Part shown: one piece after another, positions 4,380 to 60,586 of the stretch
Layout of the letters: each line of letters starts with the position of its first letter
How positions within the stretch are numbered: position 1 is the first letter of the stretch
Made by a program: the position numbers and the translations under genes
Notes under the pieces: model-generated
Told to the model about the DNA's origin: nothing
Database searches by the model: none
Seen by the model: only the letters and a program-made list of their open reading frames with translations
Source of the DNA: Bacilli bacterium
GTDB lineage: Bacteria; Bacillota_I; Bacilli_A; ML615J-28; CAG-698
Direction: 5' to 3'
Assembly: GCA_017450215.1 (NCBI GenBank)
Contig: JAFSVH010000017.1
Coordinates: forward strand, 3,497-67,496
Length of the DNA: 64,000 nucleotides

Positions 4380-4632
4380 ATGATAATAAGCGTTGAAGAG
4401 AAAAGTAATTATATTAACAGAATCAGTGATATGAGGATAGTGTGAACTCATACAAGTTATATAACGAAAGAACACTCTGAGCTATAGGAAGAACAAAGTA
4501 GAACCTATCGTATTTCTGCGTTAAAGAATAATTGAGTGCAAAAAATCATTTTTTGAAATAAGGTGGTACCGCGATATTTCGTCCTTAACATTTAAATCCT
4601 TTCGATTTAATTTGTTAAGGCTTTTTTTAAGG
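4380..4632 (+). promoter_or_regulatory. T-box riboswitch leader of asnS, with terminator hairpin and U-tract
   Basis: Conserved T-box sequence AGGTGGTACCGCG at 4561-4573. Terminator stem CCTTAACA (4583-4590) / TGTTAAGG (4613-4620) followed by CTTTTTTT. An aminoacyl-tRNA synthetase gene follows. Confidence 0.75.
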
Positions 4633-4640
4633 AGGATAAA

Positions 4641-6032
4641 ATGAAAGCTATTAATTTTAAAAAATTACAAAATGAATTTAAATCATTCGAAAACAAAGAA
4701 GTGTTGTTACAAGGATGGATTAGAACAAACAGAAACCAAAAAGAATTTGGTTTTATTAATTTAAATGATGGTTCAACAGTTTCTAACTTACAAGTTGTAT
4801 ACGATAAAACATTAAACAATTTTGAAGATGTTTCAAAATATCGTGTAGGCTGTGCATTAAGTGTATACGGAATAGTTGTACTAACACCTCAAATGCAACA
4901 ACCATTTGAATTAAAAGCAACAAAAATAATTCTTGAAGGTGATTGTCCTGAAAACTATCCAATTCAACCAAAAAGACATACTAAAGAATTCTTAAGGGAA
5001 CAAGCACATTTAAGAAGTAGAACAAATTTATTTAATGCTACTTTCAAAATTAGAAGCTTATTAGCTTATGCTATTCATAATTTCTTTAGAGAAAAAGACT
5101 TTTTATATGTCCATACTCCATTAATTACCGCTAATGATGCAGAAGGCGCAGGAGAAGTGTTCCAAGTAACTACTCTTGATTTAAACAAACTACCAAAAGA
5201 TGATAAGGGAAATGTAGATTTCTCAAAGGACTTCTTTGGAAAGCAAGCAAACCTTACTGTTTCTGGACAATTAGAAGCTGAAACATTTGCATTAGCATTT
5301 AAAAATGTTTATACATTTGGACCAACATTTAGGGCTGAGAACTCAAATACAACAAGACATGCTTCAGAATTTTGGATGATTGAACCAGAAATGGCTTTTG
5401 CTGATTTAAACGATGATATGGACATCATTGAAGAAATGGTTAAATATGTTGTGAAATATGTTTTAGATAATGCAAAAGAAGAGATGATGTTCTTTGAAAA
5501 GTTTGTGTGCCCTGGAAAAATCAAGCAATTAGAAGAATTGCTTTCAAGTCATATCGTTAGATGTGATTATGAAGAAGCAATCAAAATCTTTAAAAATTCA
5601 AAGAAAAAATTTGAAGTTGATATCAACTATGGTGATGATCTAACAACAGAACATGAAAAATATTTAACTGATGAATATTTTAAAACTCCTGTTTTCTTAA
5701 CAAATTGGCCTAAAGAAATTAAAGCATTTTATATGAAGTTAAATCCTGATGGTAAAACTGTGGCTGCTGTAGACTTGTTAGTTCCTGGAAGTGGTGAGTT
5801 AGTTGGCGGAAGTCAAAGAGAAGAAAACCTAGACTTATTAATGAAGAGAATGGAAGAATTACATATTCCTCAAAAAGGAATGGAATGGTATTTAGATTTA
5901 CGTCGCTTTGGCAGTGTTTACCATTCTGGATTTGGTCTAGGATTTGAAAGATTAATTATGTATGTTACTGGTATTGAAAATATTAGAGATTCAATTCCAT
6001 ATCCTAGAACTCCAAGAAATTGTGAATTCTAA
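4641..6032 (+). CDS. asnS: Asparagine--tRNA ligase
   Basis: 463 aa. Class IIb synthetase with N-terminal OB fold and motifs 1-3 (FRAENSNTTRHASEFWMIE...GFGLGFERL). RBS AAGGAGG 7 nt upstream of the ATG. Confidence 0.9.
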   Translation: MKAINFKKLQNEFKSFENKEVLLQGWIRTNRNQKEFGFINLNDGSTVSNLQVVYDKTLNNFEDVSKYRVGCALSVYGIVVLTPQMQQPFELKATKIILEGDCPENYPIQPKRHTKEFLREQAHLRSRTNLFNATFKIRSLLAYAIHNFFREKDFLYVHTPLITANDAEGAGEVFQVTTLDLNKLPKDDKGNVDFSKDFFGKQANLTVSGQLEAETFALAFKNVYTFGPTFRAENSNTTRHASEFWMIEPEMAFADLNDDMDIIEEMVKYVVKYVLDNAKEEMMFFEKFVCPGKIKQLEELLSSHIVRCDYEEAIKIFKNSKKKFEVDINYGDDLTTEHEKYLTDEYFKTPVFLTNWPKEIKAFYMKLNPDGKTVAAVDLLVPGSGELVGGSQREENLDLLMKRMEELHIPQKGMEWYLDLRRFGSVYHSGFGLGFERLIMYVTGIENIRDSIPYPRTPRNCEF

Positions 6033-55606: not shown

Positions 55607-56806
55607 ATGAAGAAGACTATAAGAGATGTAAATTTAAAAGATAAGAAGGTATTAATTAGAGTTGATTTCAATGTACCTATGAAGAATGGTGTTATTACTA
55701 ACGATAATAGAATCGTTCAAGCTTTACCTACAATTAATTATGCATTAGAAAATGGTGCAAAAGTAATTCTATTCTCTCATTTAGGAAGAGTTAAAGAAGA
55801 AGCTGATAAGGCTGCTAATAGTTTAGCTCCAGTTGCAAAGAGATTAGAAGAATTATTAAATAAAAAAGTATACTTTGTTCCTACTACTCGTGGAAAAGAA
55901 TTAGAAGATGCTGTTAACAATATGAAAGTTGGCGATGTTGTAATGTTCGAAAACACAAGATGGGAAGATGTTCCAGATAAGAAAGAATCTAAGAACAATC
56001 CTGAATTAGGTGCATATTGGGCATCACTTGGTGATGTATTTGTAAATGATGCTTTTGGTACAGCTCATAGAGCACATGCTTCTAATGCTGGTATCGCTGC
56101 TAATATCAAAGATTCAGTTGCTGGATTCTTGATGGAAAAAGAAATTAAGTTTATTGGTGATGCAGTTGATAATCCAGTTAGACCATTCGTAGCTATTTTA
56201 GGTGGTGCAAAAGTTTCTGATAAAATTTCTGTTATTGAAAACTTATTAACTAAAGCTGATAAGATTTTAATTTGTGGTGCTATGGCTTATACATTCTATA
56301 AGGCTCAAGGCTGGGAAGTTGGAACAAGTAAATGTGAAGATGATTTTGTTGAATTTGCAAAAGGCTTATTAGAAAAAGCAAATGGTAAAATCGTATTACC
56401 ATGTGATACTGTAGTATCAGATAAATTCCCAGAAGATGGTGATGTTATTGTTAAGAAGACAGTTGCATCAAATGCTATTCCTGCTGATATGATGGGCTTA
56501 GATGTTGGAATGGGAACAATTGAATTATTCAAAAAAGAATTACAAGGTGCTAAGACTGTTGTATGGAATGGACCTGCTGGTGTGTTTGAAGTAAAAGAAT
56601 TTGCTGTTGGAACAAATGCCATTTGTGAAGCATTAGCTGAACTTGAGGGTGCTACAACTATTATTGGTGGTGGAGATTCTGCTTCTGCTGCAATCAAGTT
56701 AGGATATGAAAAGAAATTCACTCATATCTCTACAGGTGGTGGAGCAAGTTTAGAATATTTAGAAGGTAAGGAATTACCTGGTGTTGCTTGTATTAATGAC
56801 AAGTAA
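55607..56806 (+). CDS. pgk: Phosphoglycerate kinase
   Basis: 399 aa with full PGK signatures (RVDFNVP, GGGASLE). Confidence 0.92.
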
Positions 56807-56844
56807 TTAATAATTAGTGTTTAAAAATTTAATAGGAGGTATAT

Positions 56845-57090
56845 ATGACAAGCGTATTACATATTAAAAATACATCTGGTATTGATGCTCGCTTAGCTCA
56901 ACAAATCGTTCAAAAAGCTTCTGAATATGAAGCTGATATGGTTTTAAGCTATTTAGGCAAAGAAGTAGACCTAAAGTCAATCCTTGGAATCATGTCTCTT
57001 GCTGTTTTAGAAGGTGCTGAAATTGAAATTATTGCGAAAGGAAATGATGCTAAAGAAGCAATCGATGCTTTAGCTCAAATGATTAAATAA
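56845..57090 (+). CDS. crh: HPr-like protein lacking the catalytic His15 (Crh-like paralog, H15D) with Ser46 retained
   Basis: Aligns with HPr and Crh: SGIDARLAQ in place of SGIHARPAT, and KSILGIMSLAV (Ser46 region) is conserved. 81 aa. Confidence 0.7.
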   Translation: MTSVLHIKNTSGIDARLAQQIVQKASEYEADMVLSYLGKEVDLKSILGIMSLAVLEGAEIEIIAKGNDAKEAIDALAQMIK

Positions 57091-57845
57091 TGAGAAAACC
57101 TATTATTGCTGGAAATTGGAAAATGTTTAAGACTAGAGATGAAGCATTACAATTCGTTTTAGCTGTAAACGAAAAGATGCCATCTATAGATAAAGTTGAT
57201 AGTGTTGTTTGTGCTCCTGCAATTCTTTTAAGAGATCTTGTAAAGAGACAAGGTGATAATTTAAGAATTGGTGCACAAAATATGCATTTTAAAGAAAGCG
57301 GAGCTTACACTGGTGAAATTTCACCTATTATGCTTACATCAACTGGTGTTACTTATGTTATTATTGGACATAGTGAAAGAAGAGCAATGTTTAATGAAAC
57401 TGATGAATCTTGTAATTTGAAACTTCATTCTGCATTTGAACATGGTTTAAAACCTATTTTATGTGTTGGTGAAAGTTTAGAACAAAGAGAAGGCGGAAAG
57501 ACAGAAGAATTATTATCATTCCAATTAGAAAATGATCTTAAAGGTTTAACCGCTGATCAAGTTAAAGAATTAGTAATTGCTTATGAACCTATTTGGGCTA
57601 TTGGTACAGGAAGAACTGCAACTAGTGATGTTGCTGATGATACTTGTGGATTCATTAGAGAAAAAGTAGCTCAATTATATAGTAAAGAAGTTGCTGAAGC
57701 TATTAGAATTCAATATGGTGGAAGCGTAAAAGTTTCAAATATTGATGAATTGATGAGTAAACCAAATATCGATGGTGCATTAATTGGTGGTGCTAGTTTA
57801 ATTGCTGAAGACTTTATTAAATTAGTTAACGCTGCTTTAAAATAA
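57090..57845 (+). CDS. tpiA: Triosephosphate isomerase
   Basis: Motifs IAGNWKMF, IGHSERR and AYEPIWAIGTG. Confidence 0.92.
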   Translation: MRKPIIAGNWKMFKTRDEALQFVLAVNEKMPSIDKVDSVVCAPAILLRDLVKRQGDNLRIGAQNMHFKESGAYTGEISPIMLTSTGVTYVIIGHSERRAMFNETDESCNLKLHSAFEHGLKPILCVGESLEQREGGKTEELLSFQLENDLKGLTADQVKELVIAYEPIWAIGTGRTATSDVADDTCGFIREKVAQLYSKEVAEAIRIQYGGSVKVSNIDELMSKPNIDGALIGGASLIAEDFIKLVNAALK

Positions 57846-57884
57846 TTAAATAGTAAAATAAATACTCATTTTTATTCTGCATTT

Positions 57885-58011
57885 ATTTTCAGGGCAAGGT
57901 GAAATTCCTGACCGGTGGTAAAGTCCACGAGCTGTTATATAAGCATGAAATGGTGAAATTCCATTACCGATAGTATAGTCTAGATGAAAGAAATAAAAGA
58001 AAGGATTATAC
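57885..58011 (+). promoter_or_regulatory. Structured 5' leader (candidate riboswitch aptamer of unassigned class) with two hairpins presenting identical UGAAAUU loops
   Basis: GGUGAAAUUCC occurs twice (57899-57909 and 57952-57962), each closing a short stem. A third hairpin GUGG-UAAAGU-CCAC lies between them. A terminator follows and the downstream gene is a putative transporter S component. Confidence 0.4.
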
Positions 58012-58050
58012 AATAGTGCCCATTATAACCTTATTTGGGCACTATTTTAT
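58012..58050 (+). terminator. Leader (attenuator) terminator: ATAGTGCCC-loop-GGGCACTAT plus T-run
   Basis: 9-bp stem at 58012-58020 / 58037-58045 followed by TTTTATTTATATT. The ORF-track N-terminus MPIITLFGHYFIYI is the translation of this hairpin. Confidence 0.55.
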
Positions 58051-58057
58051 TTATATT

Positions 58058-58789
58058 ATGAAAACAACAATAAAAGCCTTAGCTGCTGGATTAATATTAG
58101 TAGCTATTGTAACTATATCATTGATCTATTTCTTTAAAAAAGAAAACAAAGATAATTTAACAAAAAAGCAAAAAACAAGAAAAATGGCGATGGTGTCAAT
58201 ATTGAGTGCTTTATCTGTCGTGCTATACTTTTTAAAATTCCCTTTACCATTTTTTGTTAGTTTTTTAGATGTTCAATTTTCTAATTTGCCAGTGTTTCTA
58301 GCAAGTTTTATGTTTGGACCTGTTGAAGGAATTGTTGTAGCATTAATTAGAACTTTAATTAAAATTCCTTTTTCTTCAACAATGTGTGTTGGTGAATTAC
58401 AAGATTTAATTATTTCGATTACTATATCTTGTATTTCGGGAATAGTATATTTTAGAAATAAAACAAGAAAGGGAGCATTAATTTCTCTCATACTTGCTAG
58501 TGTATCTTGGGTTTTGATTGCTTTATTATCAAATGCCTTTATTTCTGTTCCTTTTTACATTAAATTTATGTTTAATGGAGATAATACAGTTATTGTTAAT
58601 ATGATTAAAGCAGTAATACCAAATACTACAAGCGAAAACTATTTAATGAATTATTTATTACTATCATGCTTACCTTTTAATATATTGTTAAGCAGTGTGG
58701 TGAGTTTAATAACTTTCTTGGTGTATAAAAGAACATCAATCTTATTTAAGAAATTTATTTATAAAGATGATATGCAAGGAGATATCTAA
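58058..58789 (+). CDS. ECF-transporter S component-like integral membrane protein (substrate unknown)
   Basis: Start moved to the ATG at 58058 (MKTTIKALAAG). Multi-TM protein with the S-component-like segment FLDVQFSNLPVFLASFMFGPVEGIVVALI. Confidence 0.45.
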   Translation: MKTTIKALAAGLILVAIVTISLIYFFKKENKDNLTKKQKTRKMAMVSILSALSVVLYFLKFPLPFFVSFLDVQFSNLPVFLASFMFGPVEGIVVALIRTLIKIPFSSTMCVGELQDLIISITISCISGIVYFRNKTRKGALISLILASVSWVLIALLSNAFISVPFYIKFMFNGDNTVIVNMIKAVIPNTTSENYLMNYLLLSCLPFNILLSSVVSLITFLVYKRTSILFKKFIYKDDMQGDI

Positions 58790-58792
58790 ATA

Positions 58793-60586
58793 ATGAAAAA
58801 AGCATTTATTGGTATATTTATTATAATTACATGTTTATTTGTTCTTTGTGCCTGTGGTGAAGCAAAAGAAGCAACAATCGAATGTGAAGATTTATTTTTA
58901 TTACTTGATGGTACTCAAAAGATTAATGCTACTTCAAATATAGAAAAAGCATCATATGTGTATGAAATTGTTGAAGGCGATGCTATTGAAATTCAAGGTG
59001 ATCATGTCTATGGTAAAAAACTAGGTATAGCAAAAGTAAATGTATCTATTAAAGGATATGAAGGAACAAAAACCATCACTATTGAAGTTGTTGAAGAAGG
59101 ATTAAAGTTGACTGGTCCAAGTGAGGTTGTTATTGAAGAACAAATTGAATTAACATTACACAAATTTGGTATTGATGATGAAGAATATATAACATGGAGA
59201 AGCCTAAATCCAGAAATTGCTACAGTGTTTAAAGGTCTTGTTACAGGTGTTGCTTTAGGTAAGGCAAAAATAATTGCAAGATCTGATGTTTTTACTACTG
59301 AATTTGAAATTGAAGTTATTAGACCAACAGCAACAGAACTTGTTGTAGAAGGCAATGTAGATACAATTAAATTAGATACAGATTGTGAATATGAATTGGA
59401 TTATGAAGTATTACCTTTCTACGCATCAAAGGATATTGTTGTTACAAGTGATAATGAATTAGTAAAGGTTGTTGATGCATACAAAATTCAAACAAAGGGA
59501 ATTGGAAAAGCGAAATTAACTATTGTGTCAGTAAGCAACAATAAATTAATTAAAGAATTAAATATTGATGTAGTGCAAAAAGAAGGACCAAAATTTGAAA
59601 AGCAAAGTGATTACAAAGAGGTAATTGATGTTAATTATGGTGATGTTTCTGCGCTTTTACAAGGATTAAAAGTAATTGATAATGCTGATGGTGAAATTGG
59701 TGATAAAATATCATGTAACATTAATGACTTACATTCATATGGTGAAAAAGAAATCGAAATTACAGCTCAAGATAGAGCAGGTAATCAATCAACATTCACA
59801 AGAAAAATTAATGTAATTTGGACTTATAAAACAAAATTTATTGGTCATAGAGGTAGTATATATGGTGTTGCAAACACTGAAGAAGCATTCCTATATGCAG
59901 CACGTGATTTGCATTATCAAGCATTAGAGTGTGATGTTCATCAAACAAGTGATGGTGTGTTTGTTGTAAATCATGACGATGATTATTTAGGAATTAATAT
60001 TGCAAGTATTACATATGATGAACTAAAAACAATTGAAAAAACAGAAAAGACATTTGGATACCCTAAATCATTAGGTTTAGCTGAAGAAAAATATACTGCT
60101 ACAATTTGTACAGTAGAAAGATATTTACAAATATGTAAAGAATATGGATGTATTGCTGTTGTTGAACTAAAATCCTCACCAGGTATTTCTAGCTATAGCC
60201 AAGATAGAATGCAAGCATTGATGGATTTAATTACTAATTGTGGAATGTTAGATAATTTAATTATTCTTACATCACAAAGAGCATGTCTAGAATGGTTAAG
60301 AACTCATAATTATAAAGACGTTAAAGCACAATATCTTGTAAATAGTTTGGAAAGCGAAGATACTTTAAATTATTGTATAAAGAATAATTTTGATATTAGT
60401 TCAAATGTTTCTGGTGATCATCCAAGTCAAGAGTGGATTGATAAATATCATGCAGCAGGACTTGAAGTATCTGTATGGACATTCTCTTCATATAGTGATT
60501 ATTCAGCTGTTCAAAAATATATCGATAAAGGTGTTGATTATGTAACAGTAGATTGGCACATTATGGAAAACTTAGATTTGAAATAA
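58793..60586 (+). CDS. Surface lipoprotein: Big_2 domains plus a C-terminal glycerophosphodiester phosphodiesterase (GDPD) domain
   Basis: Lipobox LCAC. GDPD motifs HRGS, E..D.H.T.DG and VNHDDD in the C-terminal 250 aa. Confidence 0.7.
   Translation: MKKAFIGIFIIITCLFVLCACGEAKEATIECEDLFLLLDGTQKINATSNIEKASYVYEIVEGDAIEIQGDHVYGKKLGIAKVNVSIKGYEGTKTITIEVVEEGLKLTGPSEVVIEEQIELTLHKFGIDDEEYITWRSLNPEIATVFKGLVTGVALGKAKIIARSDVFTTEFEIEVIRPTATELVVEGNVDTIKLDTDCEYELDYEVLPFYASKDIVVTSDNELVKVVDAYKIQTKGIGKAKLTIVSVSNNKLIKELNIDVVQKEGPKFEKQSDYKEVIDVNYGDVSALLQGLKVIDNADGEIGDKISCNINDLHSYGEKEIEITAQDRAGNQSTFTRKINVIWTYKTKFIGHRGSIYGVANTEEAFLYAARDLHYQALECDVHQTSDGVFVVNHDDDYLGINIASITYDELKTIEKTEKTFGYPKSLGLAEEKYTATICTVERYLQICKEYGCIAVVELKSSPGISSYSQDRMQALMDLITNCGMLDNLIILTSQRACLEWLRTHNYKDVKAQYLVNSLESEDTLNYCIKNNFDISSNVSGDHPSQEWIDKYHAAGLEVSVWTFSSYSDYSAVQKYIDKGVDYVTVDWHIMENLDLK

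Follow-up and report, generated by a model that had tools for sequence, protein, structure and literature searches.

The window examined here is a contiguous stretch of 64 kb, and the element under study sits in it directly behind a pgk-ptsH-tpiA cluster. The leader occupies positions 57881-58057 and is followed on the same, forward strand by a ribU-like gene coding for an ECF S component of 243 amino acids (58058-58789). Only 4 nt past the stop codon of this gene begins another one on the forward strand (58793-60586), whose product, according to a domain search, combines a lipoprotein-like N-terminus with one Big_2 and one GDPD domain. A terminator scan that accepted loops of 3-8 nt found no terminator-like site between the two genes. 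The GDPD gene is possibly co-transcribed with ribU and perhaps also under the control of the leader. The window as a whole has a G+C content of 28.7%. Proteins with 87% identity to its PGK come from uncultured ‘Bacilli’/‘Bacillota’ MAGs of gut and rumen samples, and the next PGK relatives include MAGs labelled as Acholeplasmatales and Tenericutes.

Searching the whole window with Rfam 15 gave a match of the leader to RF00050, the FMN riboswitch aptamer or RFN element, at 57881-57999 of the plus strand. The score of 108.4 bits (E 2.7e-24) is 42 bits higher than the gathering score of this family, which is 66.2 bits. The match is untruncated and spans model positions 1-138, so that an aptamer of 119 nt in the window stands against a model of 138 positions. 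In a permissive scan of the region 57780-58120, RF00050 was found again as the sole match with E < 0.2, and no match was obtained in that region for TPP, THF, preQ1, SAM or cobalamin riboswitches. FMN riboswitches are among the commonest riboswitch classes. The initial annotation had failed to match the leader to the FMN consensus, but all highly conserved positions of that consensus are in fact matched. It had also noted a loose resemblance to the TPP riboswitch; no TPP match appeared even at E ≤ 10, and the segment likened to TPP corresponds to J2/3 together with P3.

The RF00050 alignment lays a six-helix aptamer on the plus strand, consisting of P1 (57883-57890 with 57990-57997), P2 (57897-57909), P3 (57915-57928), P4 (57931-57944), P5 (57949-57965) and P6 (57971-57982), along with two junction pairs (57913-57914 with 57968-57969). 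The three consecutive hairpins that had been described before are real and represent P2, P3 and P5, but P1, P4 and P6 had been overlooked. Otherwise, all sequence features of the initial annotation are present, with coordinates right to within 1-2 nt. Among these is the 11-mer GGUGAAAUUCC, which forms the P2 hairpin at 57898-57908 and, in a second copy, the P5 hairpin at 57952-57962, both with the loop UGAAAUU and fitting the consensus GGGUGaAAUUCCC and GGUGaaAuUCC, respectively. As DNA, GGTGAAATTCC is found at these two positions (57898-57908 and 57952-57962) and nowhere else in the 64 kb of the window, compared with an expectation by chance of 0.01, and it occurred twice in none of 100 shuffles. 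Since the Rfam consensus itself has the repeat at P2 and P5, the duplicated 11-mer is a signature of the FMN class and not a peculiarity of this locus. In the F. nucleatum structure of Serganov et al. 2009, the P2/P5 repeat is said to mirror the pseudo-twofold symmetry of two domains, P2-P6 and P3-P5.

The highly conserved junction nucleotides of the consensus are all kept in the window, namely GGGCA in J1/2, ACCGG in J2/3, CGA in J3/4, GA in J4/5, CCGA in J5/6 and GAUG in J6/1, and the conserved junction nucleotides are invariant across 10 leaders that we aligned. The nucleotides forming the FMN pocket are, in 3F2Q numbering, G10, G11, G32, G62, G84, A48, A85 and A99 (PMC6298564). Mapped from junction positions and not by structural alignment, the junction nucleotides of the window presumably correspond to these pocket nucleotides. 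Deviations from the consensus within helices are compensated, with A-U replacing G-C in P2, U-A replacing C-G in P3 and UAG/CUA replacing CgG/CcG in P6. P1 consists of A and U only, and the Rfam register leaves it with two mismatches. P4 lies one position off register in the Rfam alignment; its GCU and AGC nevertheless pair cleanly. Both P3 and P4 are short, and the aptamer is compact. Unconstrained minimum-energy folding of the aptamer did not recover the P1 register and the junction of Rfam, and for this reason the structure was taken from the covariance-model alignment and from covariation.

For the comparative analysis, homologues of the encoded protein were collected and the contigs of ten were identified, giving 11 loci, with protein identities between 89% and about 44%. 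A scan of genome contigs with the RibU protein alone found no relatives. In all 11 orthologous loci RF00050 lies directly upstream of the gene (88-111 bits), including loci with differing neighbour genes. Sixteen more loci were reached via pgk, where a full-length RF00050 was located 3' of pgk in five, a count that refers to the position relative to pgk only; in one further locus of these 16 the RF00050 match is cut by the contig end. To examine covariation, the Rfam structure was laid on a MAFFT alignment of the 10 leaders and 28 pairs were counted. Standard pairs make up 90.4% of the cells, and changes on both sides are found at 10 of the 28 pairs (30 cells). The observed numbers of paired cells and of pairs and cells with double changes, as well as the covariation score, were reached in none of 500 shuffles. 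When the 3' partners were moved by 1-3 columns as a slid control, at most 54% of the cells were paired and at most 4 pairs showed double changes. The initial annotation had left the conservation of its hairpins to be judged by covariation in orthologous leaders; the aptamer hairpins are conserved there, and the compensatory changes at the 10 pairs fall into P1, P2, P3, P4 and P5. P6 and the junction pairs are invariant and therefore uninformative on covariation.

The gene at 58058-58789 appears from its sequence to encode a RibU-like S component for riboflavin. It matches PF12822 over the full profile (1-169) with 90.9 bits (cut-off 30.7, E 1.2e-25) and PF07155 (ECF-ribofla_trS) with 40.4 bits (cut-off 26.7), which bears out its earlier designation as an ECF S-component-like gene. 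Significant matches to solved structures are to RibU only, from S. aureus (3p5n, E 8.8e-22) and from T. maritima (5kbw/5kc0, E 2.6e-15), and some homologues are named “riboflavin transporter FmnP” by JGI. The subfamily was to be identified by HMM search according to the initial annotation; besides PF12822 and PF07155, which pass, there is no RibU-specific model in NCBIfam that passes. The NCBIfam matches to the FolT family (39.5 bits vs 60) and to ThiT (28.2 vs 108) stay below threshold, and the ThiT family of Pfam, PF09515, barely passes (28.5 vs 25.8). Due to the missing NCBIfam match, the assignment to the RibU subfamily is based on the structure matches and on the riboswitch itself. The genes ypaA/ribU conserve an FMN riboswitch in Firmicutes and Tenericutes (PMC4418817). 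The RibU-like protein of the window carries an extra N-terminal hydrophobic segment; its N-terminal extension comprises 40 residues.

Several observations support ATG 58058, and not GTG 58016, as the true start of this gene. The GTG-started extension (58016-58057) amounts to a translation of the terminator in front of the gene, and GTG 58016 itself lies inside the 5' arm of the stem, in agreement with the previous suggestion that the N-terminus of the open reading frame is a translated terminator. Between the window and its relative L001 the stem is conserved, and the differences in loop and tail lead to radical amino-acid changes in the GTG frame. In L002 and L004 a stop codon breaks the GTG frame ahead of the ATG, which is also the start that gene calling assigned in these loci. 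In addition, the N-termini of the homologues align from the methionine at ATG 58058. No Shine-Dalgarno sequence was found before ATG 58058.

The hairpin in question is predicted by folding as an intrinsic terminator on the plus strand, with an 11-bp stem AAUAGUGCCCA / UGGGCACUAUU (58012-58022 with 58036-58046) and a 13-nt loop. Core of this stem is the inverted repeat ATAGTGCCC / GGGCACTAT at 58013-58021 and 58037-58045. The predicted energy of the hairpin is about -15 to -17 kcal/mol, and four G-C pairs are located at the top of the stem. The U-rich tail UUUUAUUUAUAUU (58045-58057) shares the last two stem bases and is followed immediately by the ATG at 58058. The U-tract is interrupted, and a 13-nt loop is unusually large for a terminator. 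A consensus terminator scan of 57700-58900 listed nothing, having missed the hairpin at 58012-58046 because only loops of 3-8 nt were accepted. The stem of the terminator is identical in the window, L001 and L002, with a varying loop, and all of the 10 leaders have, between aptamer and start codon, a hairpin that contains G+C and precedes a U-run. In L005-L010, the six more distant loci, a clear GGAGG follows the hairpin and its U-run and is not part of the hairpin. A hairpin and U-run with GGAGG outside is the layout expected for control by transcription termination. With an FMN aptamer that is followed by a terminator hairpin and a U-rich tail, the earlier view of a ligand-controlled leader with a terminator-type platform is supported.

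We propose that the leader switches as follows. If FMN is abundant, it would bind the six-helix aptamer and thereby fix P1 and the junction nucleotides, including GGG of J1/2. In this FMN-bound state the 11-bp hairpin and the U-rich tail would form and transcription would stop just before the ATG. In the alternative state, GGGCA of J1/2 (57892-57896, plus strand), as suggested by folds of the nascent transcript, would serve as the 5' strand of an antiterminator, its partner being UGCCC (58017-58021), a part of the terminator's 5' arm. The linker GGAUUAUAC (58003-58011, plus strand) can, in the predicted ligand-free fold, pair with GUAUAGUCU, which comprises the P6 loop and 3' strand (57973-57981); this helix would open P6 and assist the antiterminator. 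With the terminator absent, transcription would continue into ribU and perhaps on into the GDPD gene next to it. The guanosines of J1/2 are reported to contact the phosphate of FMN (PMC6298564), and thus binding of FMN would tie up the very strand on which the antiterminator depends. For the rib leaders of B. subtilis and L. lactis, a scheme with long-range antiterminators has been put forward (PMC8966005).

When the nascent RNA was folded to 58035, a point at which the 3' arm of the terminator has not yet been transcribed, the antiterminator fold was the minimum-energy structure with -31.8 kcal/mol, in comparison to -18.6 kcal/mol for the secondary structure of the aptamer. With the full leader, the enforced states are nearly equal, at -32.1 kcal/mol for the OFF state (aptamer and terminator) and -33.5 kcal/mol for the ON state (antiterminator), and the unconstrained minimum-energy fold of -41.7 kcal/mol retains the terminator. 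The core of the antiterminator has just 5 bp and closes a large multiloop, and the helix of 58003-58011 with 57973-57981 is also compatible with the terminator. [quoted passage not shown] In five more distant leaders the picture is mixed: L013 and L020 pair with GGGCA, L014 and L015 find their best partner elsewhere, and L012 was left unscored because the automatic terminator search picked a wrong hairpin. We consider the chances that GGGCA and UGCCC form the antiterminator roughly even. A pairing between the 3' strand of P1 and the U-tail (AAAUAAAA with UUUUAUUU) was also considered as antiterminator and was dismissed as an ordinary extension of the terminator by an A-tract and a U-tract.

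The leader 57881-58057 is very probably a canonical FMN riboswitch with OFF-switch logic ahead of a gene for a RibU-type riboflavin transporter, and FMN itself, as we infer from the sequence, should be its true ligand. The element is therefore of an already-known kind, an FMN riboswitch controlling a RibU gene, and no new class. The initial annotation had read the leader as a riboswitch of an unrecognised class and had itself stated that a hit to a known Rfam family would make it a known element; such a hit is what the search returned. The case for an unrecognised class had been built on the failure to match known consensus sequences, and nothing of it remains after the Rfam search. It is refuted by the full-length match to RF00050 so far over the gathering score, by the presence of RF00050 in all orthologous leaders and by the agreement of the covariation with the FMN consensus structure, and we regard its probability as negligible. 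It is somewhat more conceivable, although still very improbable, that the leader belongs to those variants of the FMN class which sense riboflavin, lumichrome, lumiflavin or another flavin derivative, like the subtype 1/2 RNAs of C. difficile. In homology searches such variants are picked up as FMN riboswitches, and as a rule they stand ahead of transporter genes (PMC6298564). [quoted passage not shown] They precede efflux pumps of the norM/emrB type and were ON switches in the tested subtype 2 RNAs (PMC6298564). In the window, however, GGG of J1/2, CCGG of J2/3, CGA of J3/4, GA of J4/5, CCGA of J5/6 and GAUG of J6/1 are all canonical, the gene encodes a RibU importer, and the layout of the platform is that of an OFF switch.

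The level of control is a different question, as the same FMN aptamer could exert its effect chiefly at the initiation of translation, or at both levels, if the hairpin at 58012-58046 blocked the loading of ribosomes in the FMN-bound state. The ribU FMN riboswitch of S. pneumoniae possesses a terminator-like stem, a U-run and a mapped 3' end and yet was found in experiments to regulate translation (bioRxiv 10.1101/2025.04.17.649428), from which it follows that the control level is not readable from sequence alone. Moreover, the 3' arm of the hairpin is situated at -22 to -12 relative to ATG 58058, and initiation at this codon, which is not preceded by a Shine-Dalgarno sequence, may rely on an unstructured AU-rich leader. 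On the other hand, the window has no Shine-Dalgarno sequence that could be sequestered, GGAGG lies outside and downstream of the hairpin and U-run in L005-L010, and the succession of hairpin and U-run is kept in all 10 leaders. We consider predominant or additional control of translation rather unlikely and propose that transcription termination is probably the main level at which the FMN riboswitch of the window acts.

With respect to the origin of the transcript, a promoter scan found no sigma-70-like promoter between tpiA and the aptamer, and by eye only a weak TAAAAT at 57854-57859 was noticed, which is not accompanied by a good -35 element. In L004 the FMN riboswitch starts 4 nt after the stop codon of tpiA. 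The gene order pgk, ptsH (HPr), tpiA, FMN aptamer and ribU is common to L001-L004 and L007. We speculate, with little confidence, that in uncultured Acholeplasmatales-like Bacilli an FMN riboswitch lacking its own promoter acts as an internal attenuator placed at the end of the glycolytic pgk-ptsH-tpiA transcript and gates a RibU variant with an extra N-terminal membrane segment and a start without Shine-Dalgarno sequence and, in the window and L001, the gene for a surface GDPD lipoprotein. For riboflavin uptake in this uncultured gut lineage, the element suggests regulation by the cellular FMN level. In the annotation, the element should be labelled as FMN riboswitch (RF00050) and the downstream gene as ribU/fmnP with its start at ATG 58058 in place of GTG 58016; the significance beyond this correction is small.

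The closest known counterparts are the FMN riboswitches of ypaA/ribU (fmnP) in Bacillota, such as those of B. subtilis ypaA, L. lactis ribU, Listeria and S. aureus ribU. They share with the window element the aptamer family, the six-helix junction and the junction nucleotides, and likewise regulate the ECF S component RibU as OFF switches with the platform directly after P1. In contrast to these leaders, the aptamer of the window is compact due to its short P3 and P4, P1 is AU-only with two mismatches, and the terminator has a 13-nt loop. Further differences are the gene without Shine-Dalgarno sequence and with the additional hydrophobic segment at the N-terminus of its product, and the position of the element behind pgk-ptsH-tpiA without a recognisable promoter of its own. 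The ribD riboswitch of the B. subtilis rib operon is the biochemically characterised representative of the transcription-termination type; it binds FMN tightly and discriminates against riboflavin by a factor of roughly 100 to 1000. It controls biosynthesis genes, whereas the window element precedes a transporter gene, and compared with its characterised status the antiterminator pairing in the window is a prediction. The ribU riboswitch of S. pneumoniae resembles the window leader in having an FMN aptamer ahead of ribU and, shortly upstream of the start codon, a stem with a U-run (bioRxiv 10.1101/2025.04.17.649428). [quoted passage not shown] The variant subtypes 1/2, represented by the CD3299 RNA of C. 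difficile, are similar in the overall fold and in the association with transporter genes (PMC6298564). Unlike these variants (PMC6298564), the window element keeps the contact guanosines, precedes an importer and has the layout of an OFF switch, and, as far as its sequence indicates, it retains the nucleotides of the canonical FMN consensus.

The stop codon of tpiA and the FMN riboswitch aptamer are 35 nt apart (57846-57880), and the promoter scan found no sigma-70-like site in this gap. In L004, one of the orthologous loci from relatives, the corresponding distance is only 4 nt (2841-2844 of that locus). The riboswitch RNA may come from transcripts that read through from the upstream pgk-ptsH-tpiA cluster (55607-57845), or from a promoter located inside the 3' end of tpiA. 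Within this cluster the HPr gene ptsH (56845-57090) is placed between pgk and tpiA, its stop codon overlapping the start codon of tpiA, and the order of the three genes is conserved in the relatives' loci L001-L004 and L007.

At the other end of the leader, a lenient motif search of the window identified no Shine-Dalgarno sequence before the ribU start codon ATG 58058; the same search found one at 36 of the 49 ORF starts of the window. The ribU starts of L001, L002 and L004 likewise have no Shine-Dalgarno sequence. A conserved Shine-Dalgarno-like AAAGGA is placed between the aptamer and the terminator (58000-58005 in the window; AAAGGAG in L004). In the window it sits 10 nt upstream of an in-frame GTG at 58016 and shares bases with the linker segment that would form one strand of the predicted alternative helix.

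Downstream, only 4 nt separate the stop codon of ribU from the start of a gene for a 597-aa protein (58793-60586, + strand), to which domain matches assign a single Big_2 domain and, at the C-terminus, a GDPD (glycerophosphodiester phosphodiesterase) domain, following a lipoprotein-like N-terminus (…LFVLCAC). The terminator scan found no terminator between the two genes, and the same adjacency occurs in L001. If ribU and the GDPD gene are co-transcribed, FMN control would extend to the latter, a pairing which, if real, lacks an obvious rationale.

Among the more distant leaders, that of L015 (6811-6924) reads AAGGCA in the J1/2 junction, where AGGGCA is otherwise invariant, and contains GUGUGAUUCC in P2. 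Despite both features the leader still scores 97 bits against RF00050. The J1/2 difference is a single G-to-A exchange, which falls within the phosphate-contacting region. It may be a natural polymorphism, or it may stem from sequencing or assembly.

Elsewhere in the window two T-box leaders (RF00230) lie on the + strand, one at 4384-4589 (106.8 bits) upstream of a class II Asp/Asn/Lys-type aminoacyl-tRNA synthetase gene (4641-6032), the other at 26077-26255 (109.6 bits) upstream of serS (26330-27607). Both look ordinary.

Compared with RibU of S. aureus (189 aa) and with homologues of 203-210 aa, the RibU protein of the window is longer at its N-terminus, the extension comprising about the first 40 codons (58058-58180, + strand). 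It contains a hydrophobic segment of some 20 residues (ALAAGLILVAIVTISLIYFF) and, after it, a lysine-rich linker. The extension is conserved among a clade of homologues 237-275 aa long, in which clear GGAGG sites fix the start codons. The hydrophobic part may form a seventh membrane segment, and in that case the N-terminus of this longer RibU would face the cell exterior.
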